The notes under the pieces are model-generated. The model saw nothing but the letters and a program-made list of their open reading frames with translations, had not been told where the DNA came from and made no database searches. A stretch of DNA of 28,225 nucleotides from a virus (Duplodnaviria; Heunggongvirae; Uroviricota; Caudoviricetes). How positions within the stretch are numbered: the first letter of the stretch is position 1; each line of letters starts with the position of its first letter. Positions 10,617 to 27,545 of the stretch are shown one piece after another. Made by a program: the position numbers and the translations under genes. The stretch covers positions 1 to 28,225 of IMG/VR virus record IMGVR_UViG_2526164619_000012; one strand, 5' to 3'.

Positions 10617-11115
10617 TGCAGGATATCCGGCAGGAAACACTGAATGAATGCACCCGTGCGGAGCAGTCGGCCAGCGTGGTGCTCTGGGAAATCGACCTGA
10701 CAGAGGTCGGTGGAGAACGTTATTTTTCTGTAATGAGCAGAACGAAAAAGGTGAGCCGGTCACCTGGCAGGGGCGACAGTATCAGCCGTATCCCATTCAG
10801 GGGAGTGGTTTTGAACTGAATGGCAAAGGCACCAGTACGCGCCCCACGCTGACGGTTTCTAACCTGTACGGTATGGTCGCCGGGATGGCGGAAGATCTGC
10901 AGAGTCTGGTCGGCGGAACGGTGGTCCGGCGTAAGGTTTACGCCCGTTTTCTGGATGCGGTGAACTTCGTCAACGGAAACAGTGACGCCGATCCGGAGCA
11001 GGAGGTGATCAGCCGCTGGCGCATCGAGCAGTGCAGCGAACTGAGCGCGGTCAGTGCCTCTTTTGTGCTGGCCACACCAACGGAGACGGATGGCGCGGTT
11101 TTCCCGGGGCGTATC
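10616..11115 (+). pseudogene. L: Tail assembly protein L, N-terminal 156 codons (frameshifted and truncated at the inversion breakpoint)
   Basis: MQDIRQETLNECTRAEQSASVVLWEIDLTEVGGERYF then a frameshift in the T5 run at 10723-10727 (lambda continues ...FFCNEQNEKGEPVTWQ, which is readable in the next frame). Homology ends at ...AVFPGRI (11115). Confidence 0.75.
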
Positions 11116-11116
11116 A

Positions 11117-13476
11117 CCCCTTCAGCACCTCCTCAGCCCTCCGGTAGTCCTCCGTCCCGTAAGTGCCTTTCTGGCGACTGTCATTCTCAAGCTGTTGCAA
11201 CTGTTGCCGGTATTCCTGCCGGATGCGCAACTGTGCCTGGTAGCGCTGCCGCTGCTTATCCCCCATACCTGCAGTGGCAATATCCAGATTGTGCTGCTCA
11301 CGCAGTGCACGTTCTTTGTCTGCCAGCTGGCTGGTCAGCTGAACCGTTTTTTTCTCAGGTCGTTAAGCGCTGTCTGTTTCTGCAGCTCCTGCTGTTTCAC
11401 ATCCAGCAGCGTCAGCGCCTGAATCAGCTCATTCTTACGGGCCAGCACACTCTTTTCATCTGCCGTCAGCTTTTTCCCGTCCAGGTCGCTGATGCGCTGC
11501 TGCAGGGCCAGAAGCTGTTTATGCGCTTCAGTCATCCTTTCAGTGGCAATGCCTGCTGACTGTCTGGCAGCAGCAATCTGCCCTTCCACCTGTGCCTGCT
11601 GCTGACTGTACTGCAGCAATAACCGGGTGGCCTCATCATTACGGGTTGCCCGTGTATTTTTCTTAATGGCTTTTTCGTAACGTTCATTTTCACGCTGTAT
11701 CGCCGCATCCCTGACAGCCTAGTCGGCGTACTGCATGGCATTAATACGCGCAATTTCCCGCTGATGTCGTGCAGCTTCCGTTTCATTCATCCGGTTCAGC
11801 GCGGCATTTTCAGCATTCCGGCGTTTCTGTTGCTCCTGGTAATTCCGTTCTGCCTGCGCTTTTGCATCCTGCAAATCCTTCCGGCGTTTTTTCTCCTGAA
11901 GATCGTTAAGACGCTGCTGATCGTACTCCACCTGTGTGGAGGCGTTTGTCCACGGATATTTTTTCGCGCGCTGAATTTTTTCCTGTAACGCATCAATCTG
12001 CGCATCCAGCGAGTCTTCACGACCAATATTCATGGCCGCATCCCAGAACTGCTTCCACCAGTCAGACAAGGTTTGCAGCGTACTACCCAGCGCATTGAGA
12101 TTATTATCAATATCAGATGTGCGTTTACCGGTTTCCTCTGCCAGCGCAGACATGGCGATCCGGGCCGCATCACTGGACCGCCCCTGCTCCCCAAGGACGC
12201 GTATCTGCTCAAGCTGAGTGGCAGTCAAAAAATGCAGCGCATTGTCCAGCGCCTTCGCGGCATTTACAGGATCATCCTTCAGCCGCTTAAACTGATTTAT
12301 GGTATCGCTGACCGACTGGCCAACCGATCGCTCCATCTGTGCGGCAGCTTTCGCCACCATACCAATATCGTTTCCATGAAATGCCCCACTGCCCACCACC
12401 TGTGCCAGCGCACCGGCTGCCGCATGTTGCGTGATACCATTCCCGGATATGGCCCGGCTGAGTTTCCACAACTGCCCGACAGTGACACCGGCATAATGTC
12501 CCGTCAGCGCCAGCTGACGGTTAAATTCCTCGCCCTCCTTCCGGCCGTCATGCCAGGCTTTACCCAGACCCAGGACCGCCGCGACAAGTCCGCCAATAAC
12601 GCCGCCAGTCATCATGCCTTTCGGCGACATCAGTGCGCCTGTCCATCCGGCACGGTTAGCCAGCGTTATCCCGGATCCCCTCAGCGCACCAAAATTGCCG
12701 CGCGCCATCTGACTGATTAACCCCCCCAGCTCCCGCCGGGCTGCCGCACTTTTCAGCCCCAGCGAATGTGTGGCTTTTCCTGCCCGCTCCATTTTGCGGA
12801 TATACACTTCTGCAGCACTGCTTACCCCCAGCTGAGCCGCCCTGGCGCGAAGCAACTCAGAAGACGACAGATTCTGGCGGGTTGCCTGCTCTTTAAGCTG
12901 GCGGATAAACGCCGCTTTCTGCCGGGTGGCCTGTTCCTCTGCCTGCGTCAGGGCACGGGTTTTCGCCGTGATCTCCGAAATCAACGCCAGATAATCCTGC
13001 TGACCAACCCCGCCACTGTTTCTGGCCTGTCGGATCTGCTGCTGAATACGCTGTAATTCCTGAAGCCCCGCACCGGCCTGTTTCACACTGTCAATCTGGC
13101 GATAAAAGGCGGCAGCCGCTTTATCCTGCGCCTCCGCCAGTGCCCTGGCCTGCGCCTGTTCCTCGCGCATTTTCTGATTCAGGGCATCCACGCGCAGACG
13201 GGTTTGTTCCACCTCACGGGCCATGCGTTCATGAGCCCGTGCATTCTTCTCCACCGTCTGCGCATGGGCTGATGCTGCTGTTACAGCCGAAGAAGCCGCC
13301 TGCATTGTCTGCCGGGCCGCCTGAGTCTGACGCTCCATAAAACGCTGCATACGGGCAGAAGACCGTTCTGCATCACCGGCTGCACCATTCAGAAGGTTTT
13401 TGATACGGGGAATTTCATTTTTAAACTCTGCCGCATCAATCCCCAAATCAATGACCAGGTTGGCTATCTGGTCCAT
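11117..13476 (-). pseudogene. H: Tape measure protein H, N-terminal part (amber stop plus homopolymer frameshift, truncated at the inversion breakpoint)
   Basis: Starts MDQIANLVIDLGIDAAEF... (lambda MAEPVGDLVVDLSLDAARF...). In-frame TAG at 11719-11721, after which the same frame continues (...AMQYAD*AVRDAAIQRENERYEKA...). A second break in the A7 run (plus-strand T-run 11347-11353) is followed by a coiled-coil frame that ends ...EEVLKG at 11117. Confidence 0.8.
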
Positions 13477-13790
13477 AACGCACACCTCCGGAAATACCTT
13501 CCCCAAGATGCATCAGTTCTTCGTCCGTTCGCTCCGGTATCCAGTTCTCTTCCGGTAAAAGGCTGAAATCAGCCACCGCAGCATCACTGCTGCCGGACAC
13601 CATTCTCACGATCAATGCCTTCAGCGAGGCAAACTGCGCATCCATCCACACATCACTGAAGCTCTGCATCCGGAAATAATCGCCCCACTCACCAAGCTCA
13701 GTGGCCGACATTTCCGACAGCATCCGCCGCCAGTCTGCCCGCCGGAACTCCCGGGCAAGCCGCATGACAAACTGCATTTCCCGCGTCAGG
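13448..13790 (-). CDS. T: Tail assembly chaperone T segment (expressed as a G-T fusion by -1 frameshifting)
   Basis: 109-aa ORF in the -1 frame relative to G; it overlaps the 3' end of G and the 5' end of H, which is the lambda G/GT arrangement. Confidence 0.6.
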
Positions 13791-14172
13791 ACTTTTCCGG
13801 CGTCAGCGCCTCATGATCATCATCCCCGGCATTCTCAATGGTCCCCATACCGCTCAGCGACAGAACCCTCTCCGCCCCCGCGCCCAGCGCATCATACGAC
13901 CATGTTGTCATAATGGATGCGCAAAGCGTCTCAACATCCTGAGACTGCTCAGCATTCCACAGTGAGCGGGAAACCAGCCAGGCATTGATATCCATTCCCA
14001 TACGCAGAAAAGCAATCTGTCGTTCAGCCTCCGGCAGTTCTCCCTCCTGTGCATCAAACTTTGCCGTTCGCTGCTGAACAAACGTCAGATATTCAATTCT
14101 CTGCAGCCCGGACAGCTCACTGAGCACCACGGACTGTTTTTCATAATTAAACGTATCCTGTTTCAGAAACAT
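13786..14172 (-). CDS. G: Tail assembly chaperone G
   Basis: MFLKQDTFNYEKQSVVLSELSGLQRIEYL... matches lambda G (MFLKTESFEHNGVTVTLSELSALQRIEHL...). Confidence 0.7.
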   Translation of the reverse strand: MFLKQDTFNYEKQSVVLSELSGLQRIEYLTFVQQRTAKFDAQEGELPEAERQIAFLRMGMDINAWLVSRSLWNAEQSQDVETLCASIMTTWSYDALGAGAERVLSLSGMGTIENAGDDDHEALTPEKS

Positions 14173-14230
14173 CATGTTCTCCGGATGCAAAAAGCCCCGG
14201 ATAACCGGGACAATGATGAGTATCGTCCTG

Positions 14231-14971
14231 TTATGGTGCGCTGACGGTCACCGCAGCCACTGCCACAAACTCTCCGTCAGAGGTCATGCCCACGATGCTG
14301 ACACTGCCCTGCTTCACGCCTTTCACCGTGGCCACAAGCCCGCTCAGGGTCACCGAAGCAGTCTGAGGATCTGACGAATACACACTGATCGCTTTGTCAC
14401 TGGCCCCGTCAGGTTTTACTGTAAAGGTCAGTGTGGTGGTTGCTCCCGCTTTGACACTGACAGATGCCGGTGCCACCGTCAGTCCGGTAACACCCACGGT
14501 TTCAGCGTCCTCCTCTGCCAGATACGGACGCCCCACACCGCTGATTTTTACAGTACGGGTCATCACCTCTTTTGAGGTAATGGTTTTACCCAGTGAACTC
14601 AGCCAGCCACGGAAAACATCAACCGTACCGTTGGGGTATTTGATACGAAACGCGCAGACTTCACCGGAATCGAACAACTGAACCAGTTTTTTCTGCCCGC
14701 TGTCACCCGGACGCCAGGCCAGCGTCGCCAAAGTATCACCGACGGATTTCTGCCCCTGGGTTGTCGTTTTCCAGTCTGCATCTTCATCATCGAGATAAGT
14801 GTCATCTTCTGCATCAGCGGTCATTTCGCCAGGTTGCAGATCCTTCACCATCGCAAGACGCAGCCAGTCAGTGTCCGACAAAGGGTTCGCAAACGCATCG
14901 CCCTAGCCGGTGTACATCCAGAACGTCGTTCCCGCACCTTTCGTCTTTGCCAATGGATTTGGTGTGGTCAT
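14231..14971 (-). pseudogene. V: Major tail protein V with an in-frame amber codon at codon 23
   Basis: From the ATG at 14971: [44 protein letters not shown]..., with TAG at 14903-14905; the remainder is co-linear with lambda V (...[29 protein letters not shown]...). Confidence 0.75.
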
Positions 14972-14981
14972 TGCCACCTCC

Positions 14982-15383
14982 TTAATTCGTGTACGTGATC
15001 TGGTACGTGATTTCCGCCATCGCCCAGGTGGCCATCTCATTATCACGTTGATAGTTAAAACCGAGTGGGTTCATGGTGTCGATGAGTCCGGAAAGTGCCG
15101 GTACATCATTCAGGGCCGGGAAAATGGTGCTCTCCATCCACATATCCAGCTCTGAATCCGGTGCCTGTGCCCGGATGAAGACAGCAATATGCAGAACAGC
15201 CTGCCAGTCATCTTCATCCGTCATTTTTCCGGTGTACTGAGCATCACTCAGCCACACCGCCACGGCAGGCAGTTCCTGCGCATCAACAAATGCCGGAAGC
15301 CCGTCAAAAAACGTGGCGCTGTCTCCACACTGTTCCCGAAGGCGTGCCAGTACGACCTGGCGGATCTGTGTATGTCGGTTCAT
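14982..15383 (-). CDS. U: Minor tail protein U
   Basis: MNRHTQIRQVVLARLREQCGDSATFFDGLPAFVDAQELPAVAVWL... matches lambda U. The start at 15383 overlaps the Z stop (ATGA); an alternative upstream ATG is at 15395. Confidence 0.8.
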   Translation of the reverse strand: MNRHTQIRQVVLARLREQCGDSATFFDGLPAFVDAQELPAVAVWLSDAQYTGKMTDEDDWQAVLHIAVFIRAQAPDSELDMWMESTIFPALNDVPALSGLIDTMNPLGFNYQRDNEMATWAMAEITYQITYTN

Positions 15384-15964
15384 CGGGTCAGCCATAACCT
15401 CAGTTGTTGTTTCAGTGCATACCCCAGCTGTTTCGGCATTTCCGCAGCAATGATGCGGTCGCGGGCATCTTCAAACGCCTGTGTCAGCGCTCCGGACAGC
15501 GGGATTTTCACCACATCAATGGGGTAACGATTTTTGCCGTCAATACGCCGCATCACATGCCAGCGACCATTCGCCAGTTGCTGAATAAACGCATCCCGGA
15601 AAAGGTATTTCCCCACTTTCAGAACGCTGCCACGATGACGTGAGTTGCTGCCATGCCGGGAGCGGGCCAGTCTGACCTGTGCGGTACCCAGCTTAATGGC
15701 GGGCAGGTTACCCCGGTTAACACGCATGCGGGCATACATTTTTCCTGAGGGGCTGGCTTTAAGCAGCCTGACACGCTCCCTGACCGTTTTCAGGGGAATA
15801 CCTTTCACCTGGTTATCCCCGGCAACGGTATTCTGCGCAACCTGCCGTGTGGCGACAGAAATAATCTTTGCCGCCACACGGTTTACCGCCCATGCGCTGG
15901 CCTGTGGCACCATGCGGGTATCGAGGCTGTTCAGATTACGGATGGCATTCTCAAGCCCCTTCAT
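15380..15964 (-). CDS. Z: Minor tail protein Z
   Basis: 194 aa, MKGLENAIRNLNSLDTRMVPQASAWAVNRVAAKIIS...NGRWHVMRRIDGKNRYPIDVVKIP...; co-linear with lambda Z. Confidence 0.85.
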   Translation of the reverse strand: MKGLENAIRNLNSLDTRMVPQASAWAVNRVAAKIISVATRQVAQNTVAGDNQVKGIPLKTVRERVRLLKASPSGKMYARMRVNRGNLPAIKLGTAQVRLARSRHGSNSRHRGSVLKVGKYLFRDAFIQQLANGRWHVMRRIDGKNRYPIDVVKIPLSGALTQAFEDARDRIIAAEMPKQLGYALKQQLRLWLTR

Positions 15965-15975
15965 CCCACACCTCT

Positions 15976-16251
15976 TTACTCAATAAAGATCATTGGTTTA
16001 CCGTTAAAACGTTCATGCCGTGTGACCGTCCATTGTTGTCCGTCATAAACAACGCGGTCCCCGCGCCGTGGGCGGTATCCCGAAGAAAACACCACCAGAG
16101 AGACCGCCGGTCCGGACAGAGCGTTCAGCTCTGCCAGAGTTTCTCCCGGGAGCACAGGCATATAAACATCATTAATCGAGGCCATCTTTCCCATCTTTCT
16201 GACCGTGATCGCATCCATACGCGCTGCCAGCCGGGAAAAGGGATCAGACAT
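15976..16251 (-). CDS. Head-tail joining protein, FII-like
   Basis: 91 aa in the FII position upstream of Z; C-terminal ...RRGDRVVYDGQQWTVTRHE resembles the lambda FII ...RRGDTLTIGEENFWVDRV region. Family assignment is from position and motif only. Confidence 0.5.
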   Translation of the reverse strand: MSDPFSRLAARMDAITVRKMGKMASINDVYMPVLPGETLAELNALSGPAVSLVVFSSGYRPRRGDRVVYDGQQWTVTRHERFNGKPMIFIE

Positions 16252-16567
16252 TGAGTTTTACCGGCACTTCTTCTGCACCAGCTCCGGCATCTGCCCAGAC
16301 AACCCCGACCAGCAGATCAGAGCCGCTGTTAGTCAGCTGAACTTTTCCGGACTTCAGAAAAACCTTCTTACCCGTTTTCATGTCATCCGTTTTCAGCTTA
16401 GGCAGCATAAACACACCTTCGGTCAGGCCGTCGCCTGTTTCACCCTGTGGAATATCGGTCAGCGCCACCGCAAAAACATCACCCACCTGCACCAGATCTC
16501 CGCTGCTGATGGCTGCACTGGCAACAATCGCCACCGTTTTTCCTTCTTCTACAAAATTCTTTGCCAT
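16244..16567 (-). CDS. Small phage head protein of unrecognised family (FI position)
   Basis: ATG at 16567 preceded by a GGAGAC ribosome-binding site; 107 aa, MAKNFVEEGKTVAIVASAAISSGDLVQVGDVFAVALTDIPQGETGDG...; lies between the capsid fragment and the FII-like gene. Confidence 0.4.
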   Translation of the reverse strand: MAKNFVEEGKTVAIVASAAISSGDLVQVGDVFAVALTDIPQGETGDGLTEGVFMLPKLKTDDMKTGKKVFLKSGKVQLTNSGSDLLVGVVWADAGAGAEEVPVKLNV

Positions 16568-16653
16568 AACTGTCTCCGCACAGCCCCGTTCAGGGGCTGA
16601 TTTCAGGTACAAAAAAAGCCCTTACGGGCCATCAGAGTTGTTGTCTGCGACGT

Positions 16654-17333
16654 TTACGCCGTACATTTCACCAGGCCGCGGTGATCAACTGGCGCAACAC
16701 CGGCGTCAATACGCACTTTCGTTGTCACGCCATCCACACTGAAGCCCTCCATCTGATCAATATATGGCGTATCCACACCGTTGAGATAAGCCACTTCAAT
16801 CGTATCGGAGCCTTTGGACGCAGCCAGGTAGAAGGTGGTCTGGCTGTTATCATCAAGACGAGGCTCTGCAATAACGGTCGCAAAATCTTTCACCGGGTTA
16901 ATAATACCGGCGTTAATGTCAGCCCCCTTGACACTTGAGGAGCGAATGACCTGGTTAGCAACAGACTCCATCGCCGTCGGTACCAGTACGAACGCAGGAC
17001 GAATATTCAGATGACGCTCCCCCTCTTTCTGAACACGCATCAACTGGCGGGCTTTATCCAGCGATGCCACGTCCATTGCAGCGCTCTCCAGTACGTTTGC
17101 ATGTTTCGCTTTATCGAACAGACTTACATTATCTGTGGAGATTTTCGGGTTAGACGTCAGAATGGCATAAACCAGATCGGCAATAGTGGATTTCGCCGCA
17201 CGGCCCAGTTTCATCGGGACATCGGTCAGCATATTCAGATCATCGTTGATAATGGCCTGACGGGTGATACTGAACAGTTCACCATAGGTCGCCAGTGCAA
17301 TCGTGGCCTGTTTATCTCCGGTAGTAACGTATT
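16654..17333 (-). pseudogene. Major capsid protein, C-terminal fragment (5' part removed at the IS1 junction)
   Basis: The frame is open from the IS1 boundary at 17333 to the stop at 16654; the sequence (...GELFSITRQAIINDDLNMLTDVPMKLGRAAKSTIADLVYAIL...) resembles a major capsid C-terminal domain. Confidence 0.55.
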
Positions 17334-17348
17334 GGTAATGACTCCAAC

Positions 17349-17852
17349 TTACTGATAGTGTTTTATGTTCAGATAATGCCCGATGACCTTGTCATGCAGC
17401 TCCACCGATTTTGAGAACGACAGTGACTTCCGTCCCAGCCTTGCCAGATGTTGTCTCAGATTCAGATTATGTCGCTCAATGCGCTGAGTGTAACGCTTGC
17501 TGATAACGTGCAGCTTTCCCTTCAGGCGTGATTCATACAGCGGCCAGCCATCCGTCATCCATACCACGACCTCAAAGGCCGACAGCAGGCTCAGAAGACG
17601 CTCCAGTGTGGCCAGAGTGCCTTCACCGAAGACGTGCGCCACAACCGTCCTCCGTATCCTGTCATACGCGTAAAACAGCCAGCGCTGACGTGATTTAGCA
17701 CCGACGTAGCCCCACTGTTCGTCCATTTCAGCGCAGACAATCACATCACTGCCCGGTTGTATGCGCGAGGTTACCGACTGCGGCCTGAGTTTTTTAAGTG
17801 ACGTAAAACCGTGTTGAGGCCAACGCCCATAATGCGTGCACTGGCGCGACAT
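17349..17852 (-). CDS. insB: IS1 InsB
   Basis: 167-aa ORF; one substitution relative to the other copies (VFGEGTL versus VFGERTL). Confidence 0.85.
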
Positions 17853-18046
17853 CCGACGCCATTCATGGCCATATCAATGATTTTCTGGTGCGTACCGGGC
17901 TGAGAGGCGGTGTAGGTGAACTGTAGTTGCCATGTTTTACGGCAATGAGAGCAGAGATAGCGCTGATGTCCGGCAGTGCTTTTGCCGTTACGCACCACGC
18001 CTTCAGTAGCGGAGCAGGAAGGACATCTGATGGAAATGGAAGCCAC
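17771..18046 (-). CDS. insA: IS1 InsA
   Basis: 91-aa ORF identical to the InsA of the IS1 copy at 9100-9867. Confidence 0.9.
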
Positions 18047-18181
18047 GCAAGCACCTTAAAATCACCATCATACACTAAATCAGTAAGTTGGCAGCATTAC
18101 CAGCTGTATTGAAGCATTCCATGAGGCTGAAACCAACCTGAATCACACTGTTTTCCGTCGTAATCAATGGGAGGTGCGCCC

Positions 18182-18415
18182 ATGATTCGCCGCGTCGTTA
18201 ATTCCCTGTATCACCGATACAACCGTTGCCCCCGAGTGGGGCAGTGGTTCACCACCAGCAACGGTCACGTTCTGCGGGTTTGCCTGGTCAATACAGAAAG
18301 CCAGAAGGTTGTCTGCCAGGTTCAGGGACGTACTCATACCCTGAGTTATCCGCTGGTGGCGTTTCAGTCCGGAAAAATGTTTAAACGCCTGGGAGATGGT
18401 TATGCGTCCGTCTGA
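18182..18415 (+). CDS. Hypothetical early-region protein (77 aa) immediately upstream of the O-like gene
   Basis: ATG at 18182 with a strong GGGAGG ribosome-binding site at 18169-18174; MIRRVVNSLYHRYNRCPRVGQWFTTSNGHVLRVCLVNTESQKVVCQVQG...; no family recognised. Confidence 0.4.
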   Translation: MIRRVVNSLYHRYNRCPRVGQWFTTSNGHVLRVCLVNTESQKVVCQVQGRTHTLSYPLVAFQSGKMFKRLGDGYASV

Positions 18416-18902
18416 TCTTCTGCTCGATTTTGGGCATCCGGTTGCTTATTACCCTGGGCTCGTTAAATACATGGGAAGTCCGCACGCTGTTATTTTCTTT
18501 GGTCAGATTTTTTACTGGCAGGATAAAGCACATGCAGCGGAAGGCGTACATAAAACGCGTGAAGAGATACAACACGAAACCGGACTTACATTTGAACAAC
18601 AGGCTGTAGCGCGTAAGCATCTTGTGTCCAGAGGCATTTTGGTTGAAACCAACAAGCGTCTTGAGCACAAAATGTTCTACCGTATAGATTGTGAGCGCCT
18701 TAATGAAATTATCAATGAAAACAATCAGTTTTCCCGAAATGGGGAAACCCGTTTTCGGGAAACTGTAAAACCCAATTTCGCGGAGGAGGGAAAGCCTTCA
18801 CCGCGGACACGGGAAACCCCTCGCCGCGGAGAAGGGAAAACCAATTTCGATCTTACAGAGAATACAACAGAGATTACTTCAGAGAATACTACAGAGAGTT
18901 AA
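18396..18902 (+). CDS. Replication initiator, O-like N-terminal (iteron-binding) part; ends at an in-frame TAA
   Basis: Occupies the O position upstream of the dnaC-like and dnaB-like genes; the 3' part of the coding sequence contains iteron-like repeats, as in lambda O. Confidence 0.55.
   Translation: MVMRPSDLLLDFGHPVAYYPGLVKYMGSPHAVIFFGQIFYWQDKAHAAEGVHKTREEIQHETGLTFEQQAVARKHLVSRGILVETNKRLEHKMFYRIDCERLNEIINENNQFSRNGETRFRETVKPNFAEEGKPSPRTRETPRRGEGKTNFDLTENTTEITSENTTES
18729..18865. repeat. Putative lambda-type origin of replication: five or six tandem ~22-24 bp iterons followed by an A/T-richer stretch
   Basis: Units TTTTCCCGAAATGGGGAAACCC / GTTTTCGGGAAACTGTAAAACCC / AATTTCGCGGAGGAGGGAAAGCC / TTCACCGCGGACACGGGAAACCCC / TCGCCGCGGAGAAGGGAAAACC share the core TTTCgCGG...GGGAAAaCC. 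Confidence 0.55.
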
Positions 18903-19310
18903 AACACTATTGGCGCATCCGCTGGCGCGTCTGCACCAGCGCGTTCTGCCCGACAGGAATATTCACCGGAATTTGAACAGGCCTGGCAGGAATATCCCAA
19001 ACGTGCTGGTGGCAATTCCAAGTCAGCAGCCTTCAAAGCCTGGAAAGCCCGTATCAGGGAGGGAATAAAACCGGAGACCATGCTTGATGGCGTGAAGCGG
19101 TATGCTGCCTGGGTACGTGCCACAGGAAATACCGGCACACAGTTCGTGAAGCAGGCTGCGACGTTCTTTGGACCCGATCGTCACTTCGAAGACTTCTGGC
19201 AACAGCCAGCCGCTCCCGGAGGTGGGCGACAGCGACAGGTCGATGTCCTGGCTGGCCTGGGAGCCATGTCTGACAAATTCGGTAAATCCAGTGACAAACT
19301 GACATTCTGA
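18903..19310 (+). pseudogene. Probable C-terminal part of the O-like initiator, in frame with 18396..18902 but separated by TAA
   Basis: The frame is continuous from the TAA at 18900-18902 with no ATG until 19080 (NTIGASAGASAPARSARQEYSPEFEQAWQEYPKRAGGNSKSAAFKAWKARIREGIKPETMLDGVKRYAAW...). Confidence 0.4.
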
Positions 19311-19320
19311 GGTGACAGCG

Positions 19321-20197
19321 ATGATGACGTTTAACCTGCGTGAACAACAAAAAAGACTACAGGCGCGAATGGATGAGTTACGGGCAGAGATTGCATTTGC
19401 TCAGAAGGGCGAAAAGCCATGGCCTTATCGTTCCTGCCTGATGCGTGAAGGTCGCGGATATTGCGAAAAACATGGCGAATATCACACGCATATACTGGTG
19501 TGGAGCGATCGTAATGGCGAGGACAGAGAAAAAATTTCATGCTGCCCTGACTGCTTAATCGCTGAGGCCAACGATTTGACCATGGAGCTGTCGTCCATCA
19601 AGGCGGAAGAGCTGACTGATAACGCCGGAATTGCCCTGCGTTTTCGGGACTGCGAGTTTGATAATTATCTGGAGGTTAATCCTGACGCAGCCAGAAATCT
19701 TGCGGCCTGTCGCCGCTATGCGGAGAACTGGCCAGATATGCTGGAGAACGGTACCAGTCTTGTTATGACCGGCAGTTGTGGTACCGGAAAAATCATCTGG
19801 CTGTGGCTATGGCAAAACACATCATCCGTAACTATCTGGCCAGTGTGGAGATCACCGACGTGATGCGCCTTACCCGTGCTGTGAAAAATTGCTGGCGGAA
19901 TGACAGCGAAAAACAGCGGATGAAGTTATTGAGCGTTATGCGTCAATGGATTTGCTGATCATCGACGAAGTTGGCGTTCAGTTTGGCAGCGCGGCTGAAA
20001 TGGCTATTTTGCAGGAAATTATCAACGCCAGGTACGAAAGTATCTTGCCCACCATTCTGATCAGTAACCTCTCACCGGAAGAGTTGTGGGCGTTCATCAG
20101 TCCCCGAATTGCCGACAGGATCACAGACGGGGGACGCAACTGGTTGTCGTTTAACTGGCCCAGTTACCGTTCTCGTATCAGAGGTGTGGCTGCATGA
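19321..20197 (+). pseudogene. DnaC-like helicase loader (AAA+ ATPase) with two homopolymer frameshifts
   Basis: Walker A GSCGTGK[NHLAVAMA] and Walker B DLLIIDEVG are recovered only by shifting frame at the A5 runs at 19788-19792 and 19909-19913 (each reads correctly as A6). Confidence 0.75.
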
Positions 20198-21585
20198 CAA
20201 CTCCAGTATGGCGTAACGATGACCTTGAAGGCGCTGTCATCGGCGCGTTCTTTCTGCGCGGAGCAGATCCTGAAGTGATGGATATTCTGGCCACACTGCC
20301 AGCGGACGTTTTTTCTGTACGAGCGTATCAGGATATCTATACAGGCATCTGCAGACAGGCCCGTGTTTCAGGAGTGATTGACCCCGTGCTGTTGTGTAAT
20401 GAGATGCCGGAACTTGCCCCGGTGATTACTGATACCGGGCGTAAAACCTGGGTGAAGTCTTCACTGGAGCACTATGTTGCAGCGTTGCGGCGCAATGCCG
20501 CACTGCGCGATGCAGAAAAAACACTGAATGAGGCGCTGCAGAAATTACGTGATGCGCATACCTGTGAAGCAGCTGAAGATGCCCTGAAGGATGCGCAGAA
20601 CATGATGGTCACACTGTCGACAGGAAAGGGCGTCATTCAGCCGGTACATATTGATGATGTGCTTCCGGAAGTGGTTGAGCGTGTTGAATGCCGGAATCAG
20701 GGGCTGGAGAAATCCAGGACGTTGATGACCGGTATTGATGAACTGGACGCAAAAACAGGCGGTATGGAGCCCGGAGACCTGGTATTCATTGCCGCCCGTC
20801 CTTCGATGGGGAAAACCGAACTTGCGCTGGACATCATCGACAAGGTGACTGAGCAGGGGCATGGTGTGCTTCTGTTCACCATGGAGATGGCGAACATCCA
20901 GATTGGTGAACGTATGGTGTCTGCGGCTGGAGGGATGCCAGTATCACGCCTGAAATCTGTGGCTCACTTTGAAGATGAAGACTGGGCGCGTTTCTCACAA
21001 GGGGTGGGGCGGATGACCGGGCGCAATATCTGGATGGTGGACCAAGCGAACCTGGCCATTGATGAGATATGCGTAACAACGAAACACCACCTGATTAAAT
21101 ATCCGGAAACGGCGCTGGTGGTGGTTGATTATCTCGGGCTGATAAAAACCCGAACCACGGGGCGTCATGACCTTGCCGTGGGTGAAATCTCAAAGGGGCT
21201 TAAAGGCCTGGCAAAATCCGGTGGTTTTCCGTTGATTGCGCTGAGCCAGCTCTCCCGCGGTGTGGAGTCCAGACCCAATAAACGTCCCATGAACTCAGAC
21301 CTGAAAAATTCCGGAGAAATAGAGGCGGATGCAGACATCATTCTGATGCTTTACAGGGATGAAGTGTACAACCCGGATACGCAGGCCAGGGGCATCGCAG
21401 AAATCAATATCACGAAACAACGTAACGGTTCTCTGGGAACGATTTACCGGCGTTTTTATAACGGACATTTTCTGCCTGTGGACCAGGAAAGTGCACGGGT
21501 GCTTTCCACTCCCATGAAGCCCGGCAATCCGCGCAGATACAGTAATAAACGAACTGACAGCAGTAAGATGGAGCGTTTCTTTTGA
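20194..21585 (+). CDS. DnaB-like replicative DNA helicase
   Basis: 463 aa with a Walker A-like ARPSMGKTELALD and DnaB-family C-terminal motifs (...LIALSQLSRGVESRPNKRPMNSDLKNSGEIEADADIILMLYRDEVY...). Confidence 0.85.
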   Translation: MTTPVWRNDDLEGAVIGAFFLRGADPEVMDILATLPADVFSVRAYQDIYTGICRQARVSGVIDPVLLCNEMPELAPVITDTGRKTWVKSSLEHYVAALRRNAALRDAEKTLNEALQKLRDAHTCEAAEDALKDAQNMMVTLSTGKGVIQPVHIDDVLPEVVERVECRNQGLEKSRTLMTGIDELDAKTGGMEPGDLVFIAARPSMGKTELALDIIDKVTEQGHGVLLFTMEMANIQIGERMVSAAGGMPVSRLKSVAHFEDEDWARFSQGVGRMTGRNIWMVDQANLAIDEICVTTKHHLIKYPETALVVVDYLGLIKTRTTGRHDLAVGEISKGLKGLAKSGGFPLIALSQLSRGVESRPNKRPMNSDLKNSGEIEADADIILMLYRDEVYNPDTQARGIAEINITKQRNGSLGTIYRRFYNGHFLPVDQESARVLSTPMKPGNPRRYSNKRTDSSKMERFF

Positions 21586-21839
21586 ACAACCAGACAATGA
21601 CTTTTACCCCTGAACAATTGCGTAAACACGCGCAGGAAATGCTGCGTCATGCTGAACAACTCGAAAAAACGGGCATAACAAAAGACGCTATCCGTAAAGA
21701 TATGGTACCCGCGCTTCGGGAACTGATGCAGGCGAAGCATCGCGCACAGAAAGCAGTAGATGAGCTGGTGGACTGTGTGGCAGAGCTGGAAACCAGAGTC
21801 GGAAAGTTTGAAAAACTGGTGCAGGAGGTGCTGCGCTGA
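21582..21839 (+). CDS. Hypothetical small coiled-coil protein (nin-region position)
   Basis: 85 aa, translationally coupled to its neighbours (ATGA and TGATG overlaps); no family recognised. Confidence 0.45.
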   Translation: MNNQTMTFTPEQLRKHAQEMLRHAEQLEKTGITKDAIRKDMVPALRELMQAKHRAQKAVDELVDCVAELETRVGKFEKLVQEVLR

Positions 21840-22213
21840 TGCGCCATGAGTTTATTTTACCTTATCCGCCGACGGTGAATACTTACTGGCGACGTCGTGA
21901 CAACACATATTTTGTATCAAAAGCCGGTGAGCGTTATCGCCGGGATGTGGCGCTTATTGTCCGTCAGCAGCGACTGAAATTAAGCCTGTCCGGAAGACTG
22001 GCGATAAAGATTATTGCAGAGCCACCGGATAAGCGCCGTCGTGACCTGGACAATATCCTGAAAGCACCACTGGATGCACTGACACATGCGGGAGTGTTAA
22101 TGGACGATGAGCAGTTTGATGAAATCAATATCGTTCGTGGTCAGCCAGTATCTGGTGGACGTCTGGGGGTGAAGATTTACCCCATAATGCATGAAGAGCA
22201 GGTCAAAAAATGA
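21839..22213 (+). CDS. rusA: RusA Holliday junction resolvase
   Basis: 124 aa; ...PDKRRRDLDNILKAPLDALTHAGVLMDDEQ... matches the RusA catalytic region (...[30 protein letters not shown]...). Confidence 0.85.
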   Translation: MRHEFILPYPPTVNTYWRRRDNTYFVSKAGERYRRDVALIVRQQRLKLSLSGRLAIKIIAEPPDKRRRDLDNILKAPLDALTHAGVLMDDEQFDEINIVRGQPVSGGRLGVKIYPIMHEEQVKK

Positions 22214-23031
22214 AACTGGAAGATTTACCGAAATACTACTCCCCAAAATCCCCTTGCCTGACCGATGCATCGGCCTCAACGTCAAAAGATGCGCTGAGTA
22301 TCACTGATGTGATGGCCGCGCAGGGCATGACACAGAATCGGGCTGAGATGGGGTTTTCTGCGTTCCAGGGGAAAATGGGCATCAGTATGAATGACAGGGC
22401 GCGGGCAACAGAATTACTGGCAGATTATGCACTCAGTCGGTGCGATCGTGTGGCGGCGTTGAGAAAACTTCCGGCAGAAATAAAACCGGTAGTGATGCGC
22501 ATTATGGCTTCGTACGCTTTTGAGGATTATGCCCGCAGCGCAGCGAGTAAAAAGCAGTGCCCTTGTTGCTATGGGGAAAAATTTATTGAAAGCGTAGTTT
22601 TTACAAACAAGGTCCAGTATCCGGATGGTAAGCCGCCGGTATGGGCAAAGTGTACGAAAGGTGTGTATCCGTCTTACTGGGAAGAATGGAAAAAAGTCAG
22701 AGAGGTGGTAAAAGTTGCCTGTCCGGAGTGTGGCGGAAAGGGTGAGGTTTCCACCGCCTGTAAGGATTGCCGTGGGCGTGGTGTCGCCATTCATCGTGAA
22801 GAGTCGGTAAAACGTGGTATGCCTGTTATCAGAGACTGCCAGCGTTGTGGTGGTCGTGGCTATGAAAGACTACCATCAACGGAGGCATTTAATGCTATAT
22901 GCGAGGTGACAAACCAGATAACACGCGCGTCATGGGAAAAAACAGTTAAGAAATTCTATGATGCGCTGGTGACCCGGTTTGATATTGAAGAAGCATGGGC
23001 TGAGCGGCAGTTAAAAAAGGTAACTAGGTAA
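22210..23031 (+). CDS. Q: Late-gene antiterminator Q-like protein
   Basis: 273 aa in the position after rusA, with several CxxC pairs (CPCCYGE, CPECGG, CKDCRGRG, CQRCGGRG); followed by a promoter-terminator pair and tRNA genes as in Stx-type lambdoid phages. Confidence 0.7.
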   Translation: MKLEDLPKYYSPKSPCLTDASASTSKDALSITDVMAAQGMTQNRAEMGFSAFQGKMGISMNDRARATELLADYALSRCDRVAALRKLPAEIKPVVMRIMASYAFEDYARSAASKKQCPCCYGEKFIESVVFTNKVQYPDGKPPVWAKCTKGVYPSYWEEWKKVREVVKVACPECGGKGEVSTACKDCRGRGVAIHREESVKRGMPVIRDCQRCGGRGYERLPSTEAFNAICEVTNQITRASWEKTVKKFYDALVTRFDIEEAWAERQLKKVTR

Positions 23032-23035
23032 CAAG

Positions 23036-23063
23036 GTTGATTTTTCCGGAATCTGTGGTAAAT
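23036..23063 (+). promoter_or_regulatory. Candidate late promoter (PR'-like) downstream of Q
   Basis: -35 TTGATT (23036-23041), 16-bp spacer, -10 TAAATT (23058-23063); position analogous to lambda PR'. Confidence 0.3.
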
Positions 23064-23111
23064 TCGTCATAACTATGGGCGTTTTATGCCTGACGTTAGA
23101 AGAGTTTCTAC

Positions 23112-23135
23112 AACCCGCCGCCGAGCGGGTTTTTT
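23112..23135 (+). terminator. tR'-like rho-independent terminator
   Basis: Hairpin CCCGC-CGCCGA-GCGGG followed by TTTTTTATT, about 50 nt downstream of the candidate promoter. Confidence 0.5.
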
Positions 23136-23174
23136 ATTGCGGAATTAATTACGGACCGTTATTATTCTGCTCCC

Positions 23175-23250
23175 GGCCCTTTAGCTCAGTGGTGAGAGCG
23201 AGCGACTCATAATCGCCAGGTCGCTGGTTCAAATCCAGCAAGGGCCACCA
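23175..23250 (+). tRNA. tRNA-Ile2 (anticodon CAU, ileX/ileZ-like; Met by sequence)
   Basis: Acceptor stem GGCCCTT/AAGGGCC, anticodon loop CTCATAA, T-arm GGTTCAAATCC, 3' CCA; closely resembles E. coli ileX. Confidence 0.85.
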
Positions 23251-23349
23251 TCACAAACCGCCATTAGCTTATCAGGAAGAGCAGACGACACGATAACAGG
23301 GTTGTTGGTGCGGGGGCGGGTCCCCGATGGCGGTCCATTATCGGTATTC

Positions 23350-23426
23350 AGCGTTGTTAGCTCAGCCGGACAGAGCAATTGCCTTCTAAGCAATCGGTCA
23401 CTGGTTCGAATCCAGTACAGCGCGCC
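23350..23426 (+). tRNA. tRNA-Arg (anticodon UCU)
   Basis: GCGTTGTTAGCTCAGCCGGACAGAGC..CTTCTAAG..GGTTCGAATCC..CGCGCCA; argU/argO-like cloverleaf. Confidence 0.85.
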
Positions 23427-23598
23427 ATATTCATTCTTCCAGATTCCTTCCGGCAGAGCCTTATACTGAAATATACCTGGCTCAGGATATTGTTGAAAAT
23501 ATTTTATGTTTGTCAAAAATAAAAGTTCTGTTAAGTATTGATTGGTAATGCTGCCAACTTACTGATTTAGTGTATGATGGTGATTTTAAGGTGCTTGC

Positions 23599-23874
23599 AT
23601 GGCTTCCATTTCCATCAGATGTCCTTCCTGCTCCGCTACTGAAGGCGTGGTGCGTAACGGCAAAAGCACTGCCGGACATCAGCGCTATCTCTGCTCTCAT
23701 TGCCGTAAAACATGGCAACTACAGTTCACTTACACCGCCTCTCAGCCCGGTACGCACCAGAAAATCATTGATATGGCCATGAATGGCGTCGGATGCCGCG
23801 CCAGTGCACGCATTATGGGCGTTGGCCTCAACACGGTTTTACGTCACTTAAAAAACTCAGGCCGCAGTCGGTAA
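23599..23874 (+). CDS. insA: IS1 InsA
   Basis: 91-aa ORF identical to the other InsA copies. Confidence 0.9.
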
Positions 23875-24296
23875 CCTCGCGCATACAACCGGGCAGTGAT
23901 GTGATTGTCTGCGCTGAAATGGACGAACAGTGGGGCTACGTCGGTGCTAAATCACGTCAGCGCTGGCTGTTTTACGCGTATGACAGGATACGGAGGACGG
24001 TTGTGGCGCACGTCTTCGGTGAACGCACTCTGGCCACACTGGAGCGTCTTCTGAGCCTGCTGTCGGCCTTTGAGGTCGTGGTATGGATGACGGATGGCTG
24101 GCCGCTGTATGAATCACGCCTGAAGGGAAAGCTGCACGTTATCAGCAAGCGTTACACTCAGCGCATTGAGCGACATAATCTGAATCTGAGACAACATCTG
24201 GCAAGGCTGGGACGGAAGTCACTGTCGTTCTCAAAATCGGTGGAGCTGCATGACAAGGTCATCGGGCATTATCTGAACATAAAACACTATCAGTAA
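23793..24296 (+). CDS. insB: IS1 InsB
   Basis: 167-aa ORF; begins MPRQCT where the other copies have MSRQCT. Confidence 0.85.
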
Positions 24297-24341
24297 GTTG
24301 GAGTCATTACCGTATTGATTGAGTGTTTGTTATACGGTCTA

Positions 24342-24668
24342 ATGGTTTTTTCAGCATTAAATATTTATCATTCATATGGTGTGGGTAGAGTGAATATTGA
24401 TGAGGCGTCGGGGTGTTTCATCCTTAGGCAGCGTATTGATATAGTCAATGCAGCACGAGCAAAGGCCTTCAGCCGTTTGACAGTTTTGTTCTGTACTCCT
24501 GATCGTCTTTCGGGAAGAGACGTTATTATTCTGAATAGTGATGCTATACAGAGGGTTTGCGATGAGTTCATGGTTGCTAATTCAGAATTATTTGCTCTTG
24601 TTCAGGAGTACAACAGAATAGCCAGGACCTGTGGTATGGATGAACTTCGGATTACTCATCTGGGGTAG
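24342..24668 (+). CDS. Hypothetical protein (about 107 aa) in the post-Q/tRNA cargo slot
   Basis: ORF with an in-frame TAA immediately upstream; first ATG at 24342 (MVFSALNIYHSYGVGRVNIDEASGCFILRQRIDIVNAARAKAF...); lower GC than the surrounding phage genes; no family recognised. Confidence 0.4.
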   Translation: MVFSALNIYHSYGVGRVNIDEASGCFILRQRIDIVNAARAKAFSRLTVLFCTPDRLSGRDVIILNSDAIQRVCDEFMVANSELFALVQEYNRIARTCGMDELRITHLG

Positions 24669-25063
24669 ATACATATCTGGATTATCACCTGTTACGGTAA
24701 AAAGTGATTGCTTACTGTTTTTGTGAATGGCATTGCAGCAGCCGGATAATGTCAGTGCTGGCTGACGGTGTGCTGGTGGCGGGTGTGGTAGTTGTTGCTT
24801 TCCCGTTGCTGAAAAAGAAAACGCCAGACTGTTAGCCGGGTATCAGTTAGCGGGAGAAATTTTTAAATACTTCACAATTCAGGCGGTTGACTGTTGTCTG
24901 GTTTGCGGGGAGTTTGTTAAAAGAAACTGGCATGGTGAATCCCCCTGTGCGGAGGGGCAATCAGCGAGTAGGTATATGGGATAATCGCGGATTCAGGTGC
25001 TGGTACTGAATTCACCGGGAGGCACCCGGCACCATGCAATGGCACATAGCGCCACTCTCCAGC

Positions 25064-25098
25064 CCCTCTCCGGAGGGGCTGTTTATATTGATTTTGTC
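25064..25098 (+). terminator. Candidate rho-independent terminator
   Basis: Hairpin CCCCTC-TCCG-GAGGGG followed by CTGTTTATATTGATTTT. Confidence 0.35.
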
Positions 25099-25115
25099 AG
25101 ATGTGAGTAAACTCC

Positions 25116-25451
25116 TTATGGACTTTGTTGTTTTAGTCCATAAGGACATATTTGCAGAGTGCAACGGTTATTAAAGCATTCATTCAATACGTTATCTGTA
25201 TTTGTAGGGCATTCCTGGCTGTTTTTGATTAAATTCCAGAATGTTTTATTGAATGGTACTACGTTATAAATGGTTACAGGTAGCACTTTGTTATTGAGCA
25301 TGATGCCTGTGTGAGTCAGTGTAAATATACTTTCAGGAGGTAAGAAAGCATCCGATTGATACCAGATTATTAATTTTATTTTACTCCATATGACTGAAAA
25401 AGATATTCCGCATGATGGCTGGATAACTGTATCAATCACAATCCACTTCAT
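25116..25451 (-). CDS. Hypothetical protein (111 aa) in an AT-rich island
   Basis: ATG at 25451 with an AAGGAAA ribosome-binding site; [34 protein letters not shown]...; markedly AT-rich codon usage; no family recognised. Confidence 0.45.
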
Positions 25452-25711
25452 TTAGTTTCCTTATTTATGCCTTGCTGGTGATGTTCTGAAAAGTATAAAT
25501 GATATTTTTGAATGTAAACCATAGAGCAGAATTATTTTTCTGATGTTGTTTATTGTTTATTTAAATGCAGGGTGGTTTATATCTCGTCTTGTAGTTTATC
25601 CATGCATATCTGCTTGATAATCAGGTTTTTATTTAAGGTATGGTTTTGTGTTTTTTCTGTATTACATGTCAGGTATTTTAAAGAATTATTTTTCAGATGG
25701 TGGAAAGAACC

Positions 25712-25900
25712 ATGGCATTTAAACACTATGATGTTGTCAGGGCGGCGCCGCCGTCAGATCTTGCGGAAAAGCTGACACATAAACTGAAAGAGGGCTGGCA
25801 GCCGTTTGGTAGTCCGGTGGCCATAACCCCTTATACCCTGATACAGGCGATTGCAGCAGAAGGTGATGTGGTGGTCAGTGGTGCAACTGAGCCGGAGTGA
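25712..25900 (+). CDS. Hypothetical small protein, possibly DUF1737-like
   Basis: ATG at 25712 with a GGAAAG ribosome-binding site; MAFKHYDVVRAAPPSDLAEKLTHKLKEGWQPFGSPV...; the YDV...PSDL...EGWQP pattern is reminiscent of DUF1737 as I recall it. Tentative. Confidence 0.35.
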   Translation: MAFKHYDVVRAAPPSDLAEKLTHKLKEGWQPFGSPVAITPYTLIQAIAAEGDVVVSGATEPE

Positions 25901-26104
25901 TACTACGTCATCGTACTGGCCCGGCATTCCAGGCCATAAAAGACAGTCTGGCAGTGGGACTAAATGCACTGACGCTGACGGATATTACCAAAAATGCAAC
26001 GTATGGCGTTGAGATAGAAAGTCTGGTGCTGGAGATAAATGCACCGGCATGAGGTGTACTGGCAATAGCGGACACTACCATTTGTTCTTTTTTTAAGCAG
26101 CCAT

Positions 26105-26911
26105 CTAATGATATTTTTCCCTGAAGGCTGCCGGGGAGATATTCCCCAGACGAGAGTGACGACGCTGACGATTGTAGAAAATCTCAATGTATTCCCGTAT
26201 TACTGAGATGGCTTCATCCCGGTTATTAAAACGATAGTGGCTCAGGCTCTCATTTTTCAGCGTTCCCCAGAAGCTTTCCATCGGAGCGTTGTCGTAACAG
26301 TTACCTTTACGCGACATTGATGTTTTCAGACCAGACTGCTCCTGTATGACCCGGTAATCGTATGCGCAGTACTGTGAACCTCGATCAGAGTGGTGGATTA
26401 GCCCGGCAGGTGGGCGCTGGCTCCTGAGCGCCATAAACAGGGCTTTACCTGTCAGCTCTTTTGTCATGCGCTCTCCCATGGCGTAGCCGACAATTTCGCA
26501 CGTATAAACATCTTTGATGCCAGCGAGGTACAACCATCCCTCCTGTGTGGCAACATACGTCAGGTCCGCCACCCAGACCTGATTTGGTGCTGTAGGAGCG
26601 AACGTCTGGTTCAGCAGATTTGGCGCAACTGGCAGATTGTGGTTCGGGTTCGTAGTCGCTCTGAACTTGCGTTTCTGCTTACAGCGTAGCCTTAGCTCCT
26701 TACGAAGACGTGCCAGTCGGTCACGACCAACGATGATGCCATTCTCTGCCAGCTCCGTCTGGAGCCGCCGGGTTCCATATGTTTCGCGAGTGCGGATATG
26801 TGCCACCTTAATCTCCAGTTTTAGCCGCTCATCACTTTGTTTTCTGTCTGAGGGTTCATGCTGTACCCAGTTGTAATAACCGCTCCTGGATACACCAAAT
26901 ACCTGACACAT
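26105..26911 (-). CDS. IS600 OrfB (transposase catalytic DDE part; expressed as an OrfAB frameshift fusion)
   Basis: 268-aa ORF with an IS3-family integrase core (...HSDRGSQYCAYDY...NCYDNAPMESFWGTLKNE...). Confidence 0.85.
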   Translation of the reverse strand: MCQVFGVSRSGYYNWVQHEPSDRKQSDERLKLEIKVAHIRTRETYGTRRLQTELAENGIIVGRDRLARLRKELRLRCKQKRKFRATTNPNHNLPVAPNLLNQTFAPTAPNQVWVADLTYVATQEGWLYLAGIKDVYTCEIVGYAMGERMTKELTGKALFMALRSQRPPAGLIHHSDRGSQYCAYDYRVIQEQSGLKTSMSRKGNCYDNAPMESFWGTLKNESLSHYRFNNRDEAISVIREYIEIFYNRQRRHSRLGNISPAAFREKYH

Positions 26912-26946
26912 CGCTTCAATGGGAAATTGTTGTCGCCATTGTTCGA

Positions 26947-27249
26947 TTAACGCGTATTTTTCAGCGACTCCTGTGCAAAATACGCTGTTGCTTTTTTTAA
27001 TATATCTCGCTCAAGGCGAGCTTCATTTAACGCCTTACGCAGTTGCAGAATTTCAGATTCCAGTTCAGCCACCGTGCGGGAACCAGGAGTACCGAGCCCT
27101 TTTCTGGCGGCGGTAACCCATTGTCCTAAAGTGCCTTCAGGAAGGGATAATCGGGAAGCGCCTTCACTGATCGAAAGTTGATTTTCAAGAACCGTTCTGA
27201 CAGCTTCGGCTTTGAACTCTTTAGAGTAACGTTGGTTTTTTCTGCTCAT
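26947..27249 (-). CDS. IS600 OrfA (transposase N-terminal helix-turn-helix part)
   Basis: 100 aa, MSRKNQRYSKEFKAEAVRTVLENQLSISEGASRLSLPEGTLGQWV... Confidence 0.85.
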   Translation of the reverse strand: MSRKNQRYSKEFKAEAVRTVLENQLSISEGASRLSLPEGTLGQWVTAARKGLGTPGSRTVAELESEILQLRKALNEARLERDILKKATAYFAQESLKNTR

Positions 27250-27500
27250 TATTAGCTCCTTCTGATGCCATTCTATTTCAGGAAGGAGTGTCCGTTAAAC
27301 TCAGGCTACCTCAGCATGCTGGTCACTTGCCGCAGGAGCTAATCCTAGTTTTATCGCAAGCCAGATGGGCCACACAAACGCACAAATGGTATTCAATGTT
27401 TACGGAGCATGGATGAAAGACAACAATCACGAACAGATAGAACTTCTTAACAGAAGACTATCTGAAAGTGTCCCATGCATGCCCCATAAGAAAGCGGGGT

Positions 27501-27545
27501 AAAATAAAAACTTGCAAAATCAATTGGTTTACCTTTAATCCCTGT
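27501..27545. other. Approximate prophage-host junction (att) inside the 5' end of mlrA
   Basis: MlrA-like coding sequence begins abruptly at about 27541 ([25 protein letters not shown]...); upstream sequence encodes only a partial mimic (SIGLPLI) with no start codon. Confidence 0.4.

Follow-up and report, generated by a model that had tools for sequence, protein, structure and literature searches.

An IS1 element without target duplication at a rearrangement junction in a defective ipaH-carrying prophage of Shigella flexneri K-315

An IS1 element that lacks a target duplication, referred to here as IS1-B, is very probably the scar of a real rearrangement within a lambdoid prophage, defective and carrying ipaH, at mlrA of Shigella flexneri K-315, and two IS-mediated events would account for the structure around it. 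The stretch of DNA analysed (28,225 nucleotides, hereafter the window) is identical to positions 1-28225 of contig AKMY01000052.1 in assembly GCA_000268165.1, a 2012 draft that belongs to S. flexneri K-315 from Bangladesh (PMC6397287). In Shigella genomes, ipaH genes lie amid prophage remnants and insertion sequences (ISs), among them IS1 and IS3-family elements, which are enriched in these genomes and mark the breakpoints of rearrangements (PMC8072062). What is described below is IS-driven prophage decay, an ordinary and already known kind of event that involves no new element or mechanism; as an example it shows cleanly how a Shigella prophage carrying a virulence gene is grounded and then eroded by IS1 and IS600 while ipaH stays.

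Content and state of the prophage at mlrA

An integrase remnant beside mlrA (yehV), together with lambda-like J, Lom and tail fibre genes followed by ipaH, identifies the window as a defective lambdoid prophage that has mlrA as its integration site and carries ipaH. Its features are these:

1-885, plus strand: 3' part of ipaH (type III secretion E3 ubiquitin ligase effector), from RefSeq annotation of 99%-identical EIEC loci; the contig starts inside the gene
3118-3717, minus strand: Lom, distal tail module
3785-7264, minus strand: tail-tip protein J, distal tail module
8827-11116, no strand assigned: inverted tail piece (L'/M/H') with IS1-A inside, from BLAST against the intact relative L001
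11117-16612, minus strand: truncated tape measure, T, G, V, U, Z, head-tail joining and DUF2190 genes, from Pfam and collinear with intact relatives
16654-17333, minus strand: 3' remnant of a ClpP-like prohead protease/major capsid fusion gene, cut by IS1-B
17334-18101, minus strand: IS1-B, with IRR at 17334 and IRL at 18101
18102-18185, plus strand: last 84 bp of an ash-family gene (Phage_ASH / pRha), from alignment to positions 12001-12084 of the relative L002 and Pfam
18182-23427, plus strand: early-right block from the ash end to the tRNAs, from relatives and Pfam
20194-21585, plus strand: DnaB-like helicase, early-right block
21839-22213, plus strand: RusA, early-right block
22210-23031, plus strand: Q, early-right block
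23175-23250, plus strand: tRNA-Met/Ile(CAT), early-right block
23351-23427, plus strand: tRNA-Arg(TCT), early-right block
23544-24311, plus strand: IS1-C, a simple insertion with perfect target-site duplication GTATTGATT
24312-26049, plus strand: Q-downstream region with DUF3927, IraM (minus), DUF1737 and a 51-aa ORF, natively contiguous
26050-27313, minus strand: IS600, 1264 bp, second rearrangement junction
27314-27503, plus strand: 3' remnant (~190 bp) of the prophage tyrosine integrase gene, 97.9% identical to the int 3' ends of FDAARGOS_943 and FDAARGOS_944
27524-28225, plus strand: mlrA (yehV), chromosomal neighbour of the integration site, split into 176 + 51 aa in the K-315 lineage

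The Pfam families NEL/LRR_TTSS are called on the equivalent ipaH gene of eight other Shigella genomes, in which the alignment covers window positions 697-885. A protein look-up with the 502-aa ORF at 7336-8844 returned no record in the collection.

Lambdoid prophages with the same integrase are also integrated at mlrA in two E. coli strains, FDAARGOS_944 and FDAARGOS_943. Their modules are all co-oriented and follow the order mlrA-int-xis-...-cI-cro-Rha-BRO-ash-hyp-O-dnaC-dnaB-...-Q-tRNA-lysis-terminase-portal-capsid-tail, which in FDAARGOS_943 extends through J-Lom-fibre-ipaH. The tail and early blocks of the window are 99.1-99.5% identical to these prophages: FDAARGOS_943 holds the tail/ipaH block (99.1%) and dnaC'/dnaB (98.7%), FDAARGOS_944 holds int, the early block (99.5%) and the capsid gene, and window positions 11117-16612 match positions 6783-13000 of L001 at 99.1% identity. 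In the EIEC strain CFSAN029787, a 99%-identical ipaH-tail fibre-Lom-J end adjoins btsS (yehU), the other native neighbour of mlrA; the head genes there differ.

Whereas immunity, lysis, terminase and portal genes are present in the FDAARGOS_944 and FDAARGOS_943 prophages, the window is devoid of them and its early block is inverted. Their absence had been asserted in the first-pass annotation of this DNA, and the comparison bears it out: int 5', xis, cI/cro, lysis, terminase and portal of L001 and L002 have no match within the window, and the modules essential for induction and particle formation have been lost. Read functionally, the sequence suggests a prophage that would be without complete integrase, excisionase, repressor/pR region, lysis, terminase, portal, protease and the N-terminal two-thirds of the capsid protein. 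It is presumably an immobile remnant for which excision, repression, lysis and packaging would be impossible, and since the modules for these functions are gone, the ipaH effector would be fixed in the chromosome.

The neighbouring mlrA gene is annotated as two ORFs of 176 and 51 aa in K-315 and four further, independent assemblies of its lineage, against 233 aa in other Shigella loci, which looks like a lineage-specific frameshift in this curli regulator gene.

The IS1 junction between capsid and ash genes

IS1-B is a bona fide IS1 that departs from a simple insertion only in its lack of a target-site duplication (TSD). It is 768 bp long, its terminal inverted repeats (GGTAATGCTGCCAACTTACTGAT and GGTAATGACTCCAACTTACTGAT) match at 20 of 23 positions, and its minus-strand ORFs are insA (91 aa) and insB' (167 aa), with an A6C frameshift motif, AAAAAAC, at position 307. 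The 167-aa product corresponds to PF03400, and the fused call in related loci to PF03811 plus PF03400. The element is 99.5-99.7% identical to the other two copies in the window. All three differ from one another by 2-4 SNPs, with IS1-A as the consensus and two private SNPs each in IS1-B and IS1-C (IS1-A differs from IS1-B at positions 187 and 481, and from IS1-C at positions 56 and 253), so the assembler did not collapse them into one.

An IS1 at 17325-18181 without target duplication, set against copies at 9100 and 23544 with perfect 9-bp repeats, was the starting observation of the first-pass annotation, and both halves of it hold. The 9-bp flanks of IS1-B, TAACGTATT and AGCTGTATT, are identical at 5 of 9 positions and have GTATT in common, whereas IS1-A (9100-9867, plus strand) and IS1-C (23544-24311, plus strand) are bordered by perfect 9-bp TSDs, CAGATGGCC and GTATTGATT respectively. 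A direct repeat at shifted offsets had been named as an observation that would speak against this description; no direct or inverted repeat of at least 6 bp occurs at any offset within 25 bp of either IS1-B end. Neither IS1-A nor IS1-C was retained as a recombination partner of IS1-B, both having kept perfect direct TSDs.

On the left, IS1-B abuts the 3' 680 bp (~226 of 686 codons) of the ClpP-protease/major-capsid fusion gene on the minus strand. The gene is indeed truncated here, as had been proposed, with its break at residue ~461 of 686, inside the capsid domain (390-683). The native capsid sequence at the break (^) is ...GTAACGTATT^TATATTCCGC, and the 5' side of the break reads TATATTCCGCTCCTTCACGC in L001 (13001-13020). 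On the right stand the last 84 bp of ash, natively ...CTACGAG^AGCTGTATTGAAGC at the break and ...GCGGTACTACGAG(AGCTGTATT) on its 5' side, and then a 77-aa hypothetical gene on the plus strand. An O-position gene, a DnaC-like loader, a DnaB-like helicase, RusA, antiterminator Q and two tRNAs come next, all on the plus strand. The earlier description of an O/dnaC/dnaB/rusA/Q/tRNA block on the plus strand and tail genes on the minus strand is thus correct in order and strands, but "O" is a name by position alone, given to a 302-aa DNA-binding gene with no Pfam match. This gene (in the region of window 18402-20199) is split into 166/143 + 76 aa in all lineage assemblies, and the DnaC-like gene is split in K-315 only (180 + 37 aa, versus 292 aa elsewhere).

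The capsid break maps to position 13000 of L001 and the ash break to position 12001 of L002, sites that lie ~14 kb apart in the intact order. The 3' parts of the two genes, which point in the same direction in the relatives, are joined head-to-head in the window, and neither FDAARGOS_944 nor FDAARGOS_943 has an IS1 in ash or capsid at the IS1-B break positions. Alignment with intact relatives had been recommended as a check, and native adjacency of capsid and early genes in this orientation had been given as what would overturn the idea of a junction; both flanks prove to be non-adjacent and inverted relative to each other, which supports the conclusion that IS1-B is a rearrangement junction and not a simple insertion.

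A simple insertion with an atypical or decayed duplication, GTATT being the remnant of a 9-bp repeat, would explain why 5 of 9 flank positions agree in register. However, such agreement is at chance level (p = 0.049 for at least 5 of 9), and an insertion does not bring together two genes that are ~14 kb apart and oppositely oriented in intact relatives; we regard this explanation as refuted and give it next to no credence. A practical caveat for annotation is that an IS without a TSD is the mark of a rearrangement scar.

In loci L005-L014 the protease/capsid gene is often called as two ORFs of ~481 and ~192 aa in different frames, in a look-up biased towards such split calls, and FDAARGOS_943 has a single 686-aa fusion. 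The 192-aa capsid ORF was rejected as a marker of the junction, for which it is not specific: a look-up with it finds only those loci that have it annotated as a gene of its own, and the head module was intact in all loci shown.

The inverted block, IS600 and the order of events

The inverted block spans 18102-26049 and retains its native internal order (ash3'-O-dnaC-dnaB-rusA-Q-tRNA-IraM-DUF1737). It is collinear with the relatives through IS1-C up to 26049; the part from 24312 to 26049 is 99.5% identical to E. coli 042 (L004 6001-7739), in which 26049 corresponds to a point ~150 bp before the holin gene. Tail and capsid genes are on the minus strand, while the ash-to-Q block lies on the plus strand like the integrase remnant and mlrA, so the early block is inverted in situ. 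At the far end of the block, IS600 is joined to the last ~190 bp of the integrase gene, beyond which mlrA begins. Two segments are missing from the window. One, of ~12 kb, runs from int 5' to ash 5' (L002 133-12000) and comprises int 5', xis, immunity, Rha, BRO and ash 5', with an IS911 in that relative; the other, of ~9 kb, comprises holin, lysis, terminase, portal and capsid 5'.

The flanks of IS600 form a 3-bp direct repeat, GCA|...|GCA (chance 1/64), as at a simple insertion; other IS600 copies are flanked by AAC/AAC and GTC/GTC. Both native sites at this break read GCAT, the holin-proximal sequence being TCATCATAAAAAGTGAGCC and the int 5' side ...GGCATACCTAT(GCA). The repeat is unexpected for a recombinant IS and may be due to chance or to some other cause. 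Simple insertion of IS600 into an existing microhomology junction was considered and rejected, as the element would have to land exactly on the junction. The FDAARGOS_943 mlrA prophage (L001, L003 and L030) is itself full of ISs, with several IS600, nested IS66/ISSfl3 and ISSso6, and two of its IS600 copies also have no 3-bp TSDs, from which IS600 recombination appears to be active in this prophage family.

Adjacent deletions and inversions promoted by IS1 through intramolecular replicative transposition are part of classical E. coli genetics, and an inversion mediated by IS1 is expected to place another IS1 copy, in inverted orientation, at the opposite end of the segment. IS1-B resembles the products of such events in being an intact IS1 at a novel joint without a 9-bp duplication, deletion and inversion being the expected outcomes; one flank may derive from the site of first insertion, the other from a new target. 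It differs from a one-step IS1 inversion in that no inverted twin IS1 occurs at the far end of the segment, where IS600 (26050-27313) is found instead, so that the IS1 step may have been a deletion; alternatively, the twin copy could have been deleted later. Because the far end carries IS600, a second event involving IS600 is required, and IS1 alone is insufficient to produce the structure. Neither a single inversion nor a single deletion suffices: at least one of each is needed. The earlier proposal that the prophage was reshaped by IS1-associated deletion and/or inversion therefore stands for the IS1-B junction, but not for the far boundary formed by IS600 and the integrase remnant, and its "and/or" becomes "and".

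Two orders of events can be envisaged. In order (a), recombination between two IS600 copies in inverted orientation, located in int and upstream of holin, would invert the whole early region, after which everything from ash to capsid would be lost in an IS1-associated deletion (an adjacent deletion promoted by IS1, or one by recombination of two IS1 copies in direct orientation). In order (b), an IS1-mediated inversion between ash and capsid would come first, produced either by intramolecular replicative transposition or by recombination of two IS1 copies in inverted orientation, and a deletion by IS600 x IS600 recombination would then take out the reciprocal IS1 junction and both missing segments. 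The two orders are equal in the number of events and in the native relative orientation that they require of the two IS600 insertions, and we consider each to be possible to the same degree, somewhat short of probable. No intermediate that would discriminate (a) from (b) was found among 5426 E. coli genomes, the eight other Shigella genomes (L032-L039) and the ash-family representatives. Recombination between IS copies in Shigella (PMC8072062) likewise places IS1 and IS600, an IS3-family element, at synteny breakpoints; the inversions reported there are of replichore scale, whereas that of K-315 is local (~8 kb) and intra-prophage, and its parental IS copies are gone.

A separate, local inversion is present in the tail module, where a 2.29-kb piece (window 8827-11116) is inverted relative to L001 5270-6785. 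It holds parts of L, all of M, the 3' end of the tape-measure gene H, and IS1-A with its TSD. No IS or repeat was found at either of its junctions (CGCCAG|GGAGCC and GTATCA|CCCCTTC); 2 bp were lost at one break and 2-3 C duplicated at the other, and four independent short-read assemblies share the right junction. More speculatively, this 1.5-kb inversion without ISs, like the GCA repeat on either side of IS600, could point to reshaping that was in part independent of ISs and involved microhomology or template switching.

Recurrence of the junctions and the Sb227-type island

Searches of 5426 complete E. coli genomes with 200-bp queries spanning the junction returned neither a whole junction nor a half-junction. 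Each IS1-B flank alone gave matches of at least 99% identity in the same genomes, the best ones in different strains (FDAARGOS_943 and FDAARGOS_944), and in strain KW21 a related capsid gene carries an IS1 that inserted independently, 33 bp away. Look-ups with DnaB, Q, the truncated tape measure and MlrA led only to K-315 and ~9 short-read assemblies of the same lineage. In the independent assembly GCA_049894805.1, a single contig (L020) runs from the right end of IS1-A across the capsid junction to 72 bp inside IS1-B, and another (L016) starts 74 bp inside IS1-B, crosses the ash junction and reaches IS1-C. The ash junction is also present in two Logan assemblies (SRR11290988 and ERR6006252), and at the int junction the lineage assemblies start ~76 bp inside IS600. 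All of the ~9 assemblies break at IS elements, and the K-315 draft contig alone bridges IS1-B; no complete genome of the K-315 lineage was found in the collections searched. The 61-aa ORF that runs from IS1-B into ash was found in the K-315 contig only and in no complete genome, and the reciprocal junctions (TAACGTATT+TATATTCC... and ...CTACGAG+AGCTGTATT) are in no recovered structure of this locus, in none of the 5426 E. coli genomes and in none of the ash-family protein representatives. The IS1-B structure can be used as a lineage marker for K-315-like strains.

These searches bear on the possibility of an assembly chimera, in which the draft assembler would have joined unrelated contig ends through multicopy IS1, and likewise IS600, so that the elements would really be simple insertions in a collinear prophage. 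The assembly is a draft from 2012, and IS1 is highly repeated in Shigella (PMC8072062). The short-read assemblies of lineage-mates break at every IS1, so adjacency across it is not confirmable from them. Differences from GCA_049894805.1 are moreover of the indel type typical of error-prone reads: 0 mismatches but 2 indels in 5.6 kb, and again in 7.6 kb, which suggests homopolymer sequencing errors in the K-315 draft. Against this, a chimera needs two coordinated errors, one at IS1-B and one at IS600; IS1-B has two copy-specific SNPs; and the window contains no N runs. A predicted read-through protein of ash 5', TSD and IS1 was also sought, and no ash-family representative in the database covers the IS1-derived tail, which is weak evidence since clustering at 90% could hide one. 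The IS600 junction and the orientation of tail (minus) and late (plus) sides beside mlrA recur in seven chromosome-length Shigella assemblies and one draft contig. We therefore consider a chimera very unlikely.

The eight Shigella genomes in question (L032-L039), which include the complete S. boydii Sb227 chromosome (CP000036.1), were reached through the 51-aa ORF whose stop codon is provided by the IS600 end, and all share the DUF1737|IS600|int3'-mlrA junction with K-315. They are laid out as window 697-3786, one IS1 and window 24755-28225, at 99.2-99.7% identity, with the tail side (minus) and late side (plus) oriented relative to each other as in the window. Window positions 3787-24754, from the end of J to mid-DUF3927, are absent; a single IS1 without TSD stands in their place, flanked by ATAAAATTC and GTGCTGGCT and identical to IS1-A in three of the eight genomes. 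The Sb227-type island thus has in common with K-315 the mlrA site, ipaH-fibre-Lom (99.2%) and DUF3927'-IraM-DUF1737-IS600-int3'-mlrA (99.7%), but it is more reduced, whereas K-315 still contains IS1-B and positions 3787-24754.

Recombination between prophages or with the chromosome is the other alternative to an event within one prophage: the tail/capsid and early blocks would derive from two lambdoid prophages joined by IS1 recombination, with the reciprocal junctions elsewhere. IS-bounded inversions are frequent in Shigella (PMC8072062), several Shigella ipaH prophages at other loci, returned by a Lom look-up that was aimed at the chromosome beyond ipaH, have an identical Lom and near-identical tail modules, and the best matches of the two flanks, as noted, are in different strains. 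Yet both blocks are native within single mlrA-site prophages in FDAARGOS_943 and FDAARGOS_944, and the Sb227-type genomes hold ipaH-fibre-Lom within 4.5 kb of mlrA. We rate this origin as improbable, if a little less so than a chimera, and favour rearrangement within the one mlrA prophage.

Since the IS600 junction is common to all and positions 3787-24754 are lost from the eight genomes, K-315 represents the less reduced form of a widespread Shigella ipaH island. Two linked readings follow, which taken together we put at an even balance. The shared IS600/int junction would come from one already-rearranged prophage, either ancestral to Sb227-type S. boydii and the K-315 lineage or exchanged among them; and the K-315 lineage would preserve a stage, elsewhere lost, through which the mlrA ipaH phage passed as it was domesticated step by step, IS1-B representing the step before the final 21-kb IS1 deletion. 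One more step would thereby be added to the history of the widespread ipaH island beside mlrA.

An identical Lom protein and near-identical tail-fibre-ipaH modules are present in prophages at other sites as well (L045-L048), for example near aspS and near bioA, and such paralogous ipaH phage remnants in Shigella chromosomes could recombine with each other.
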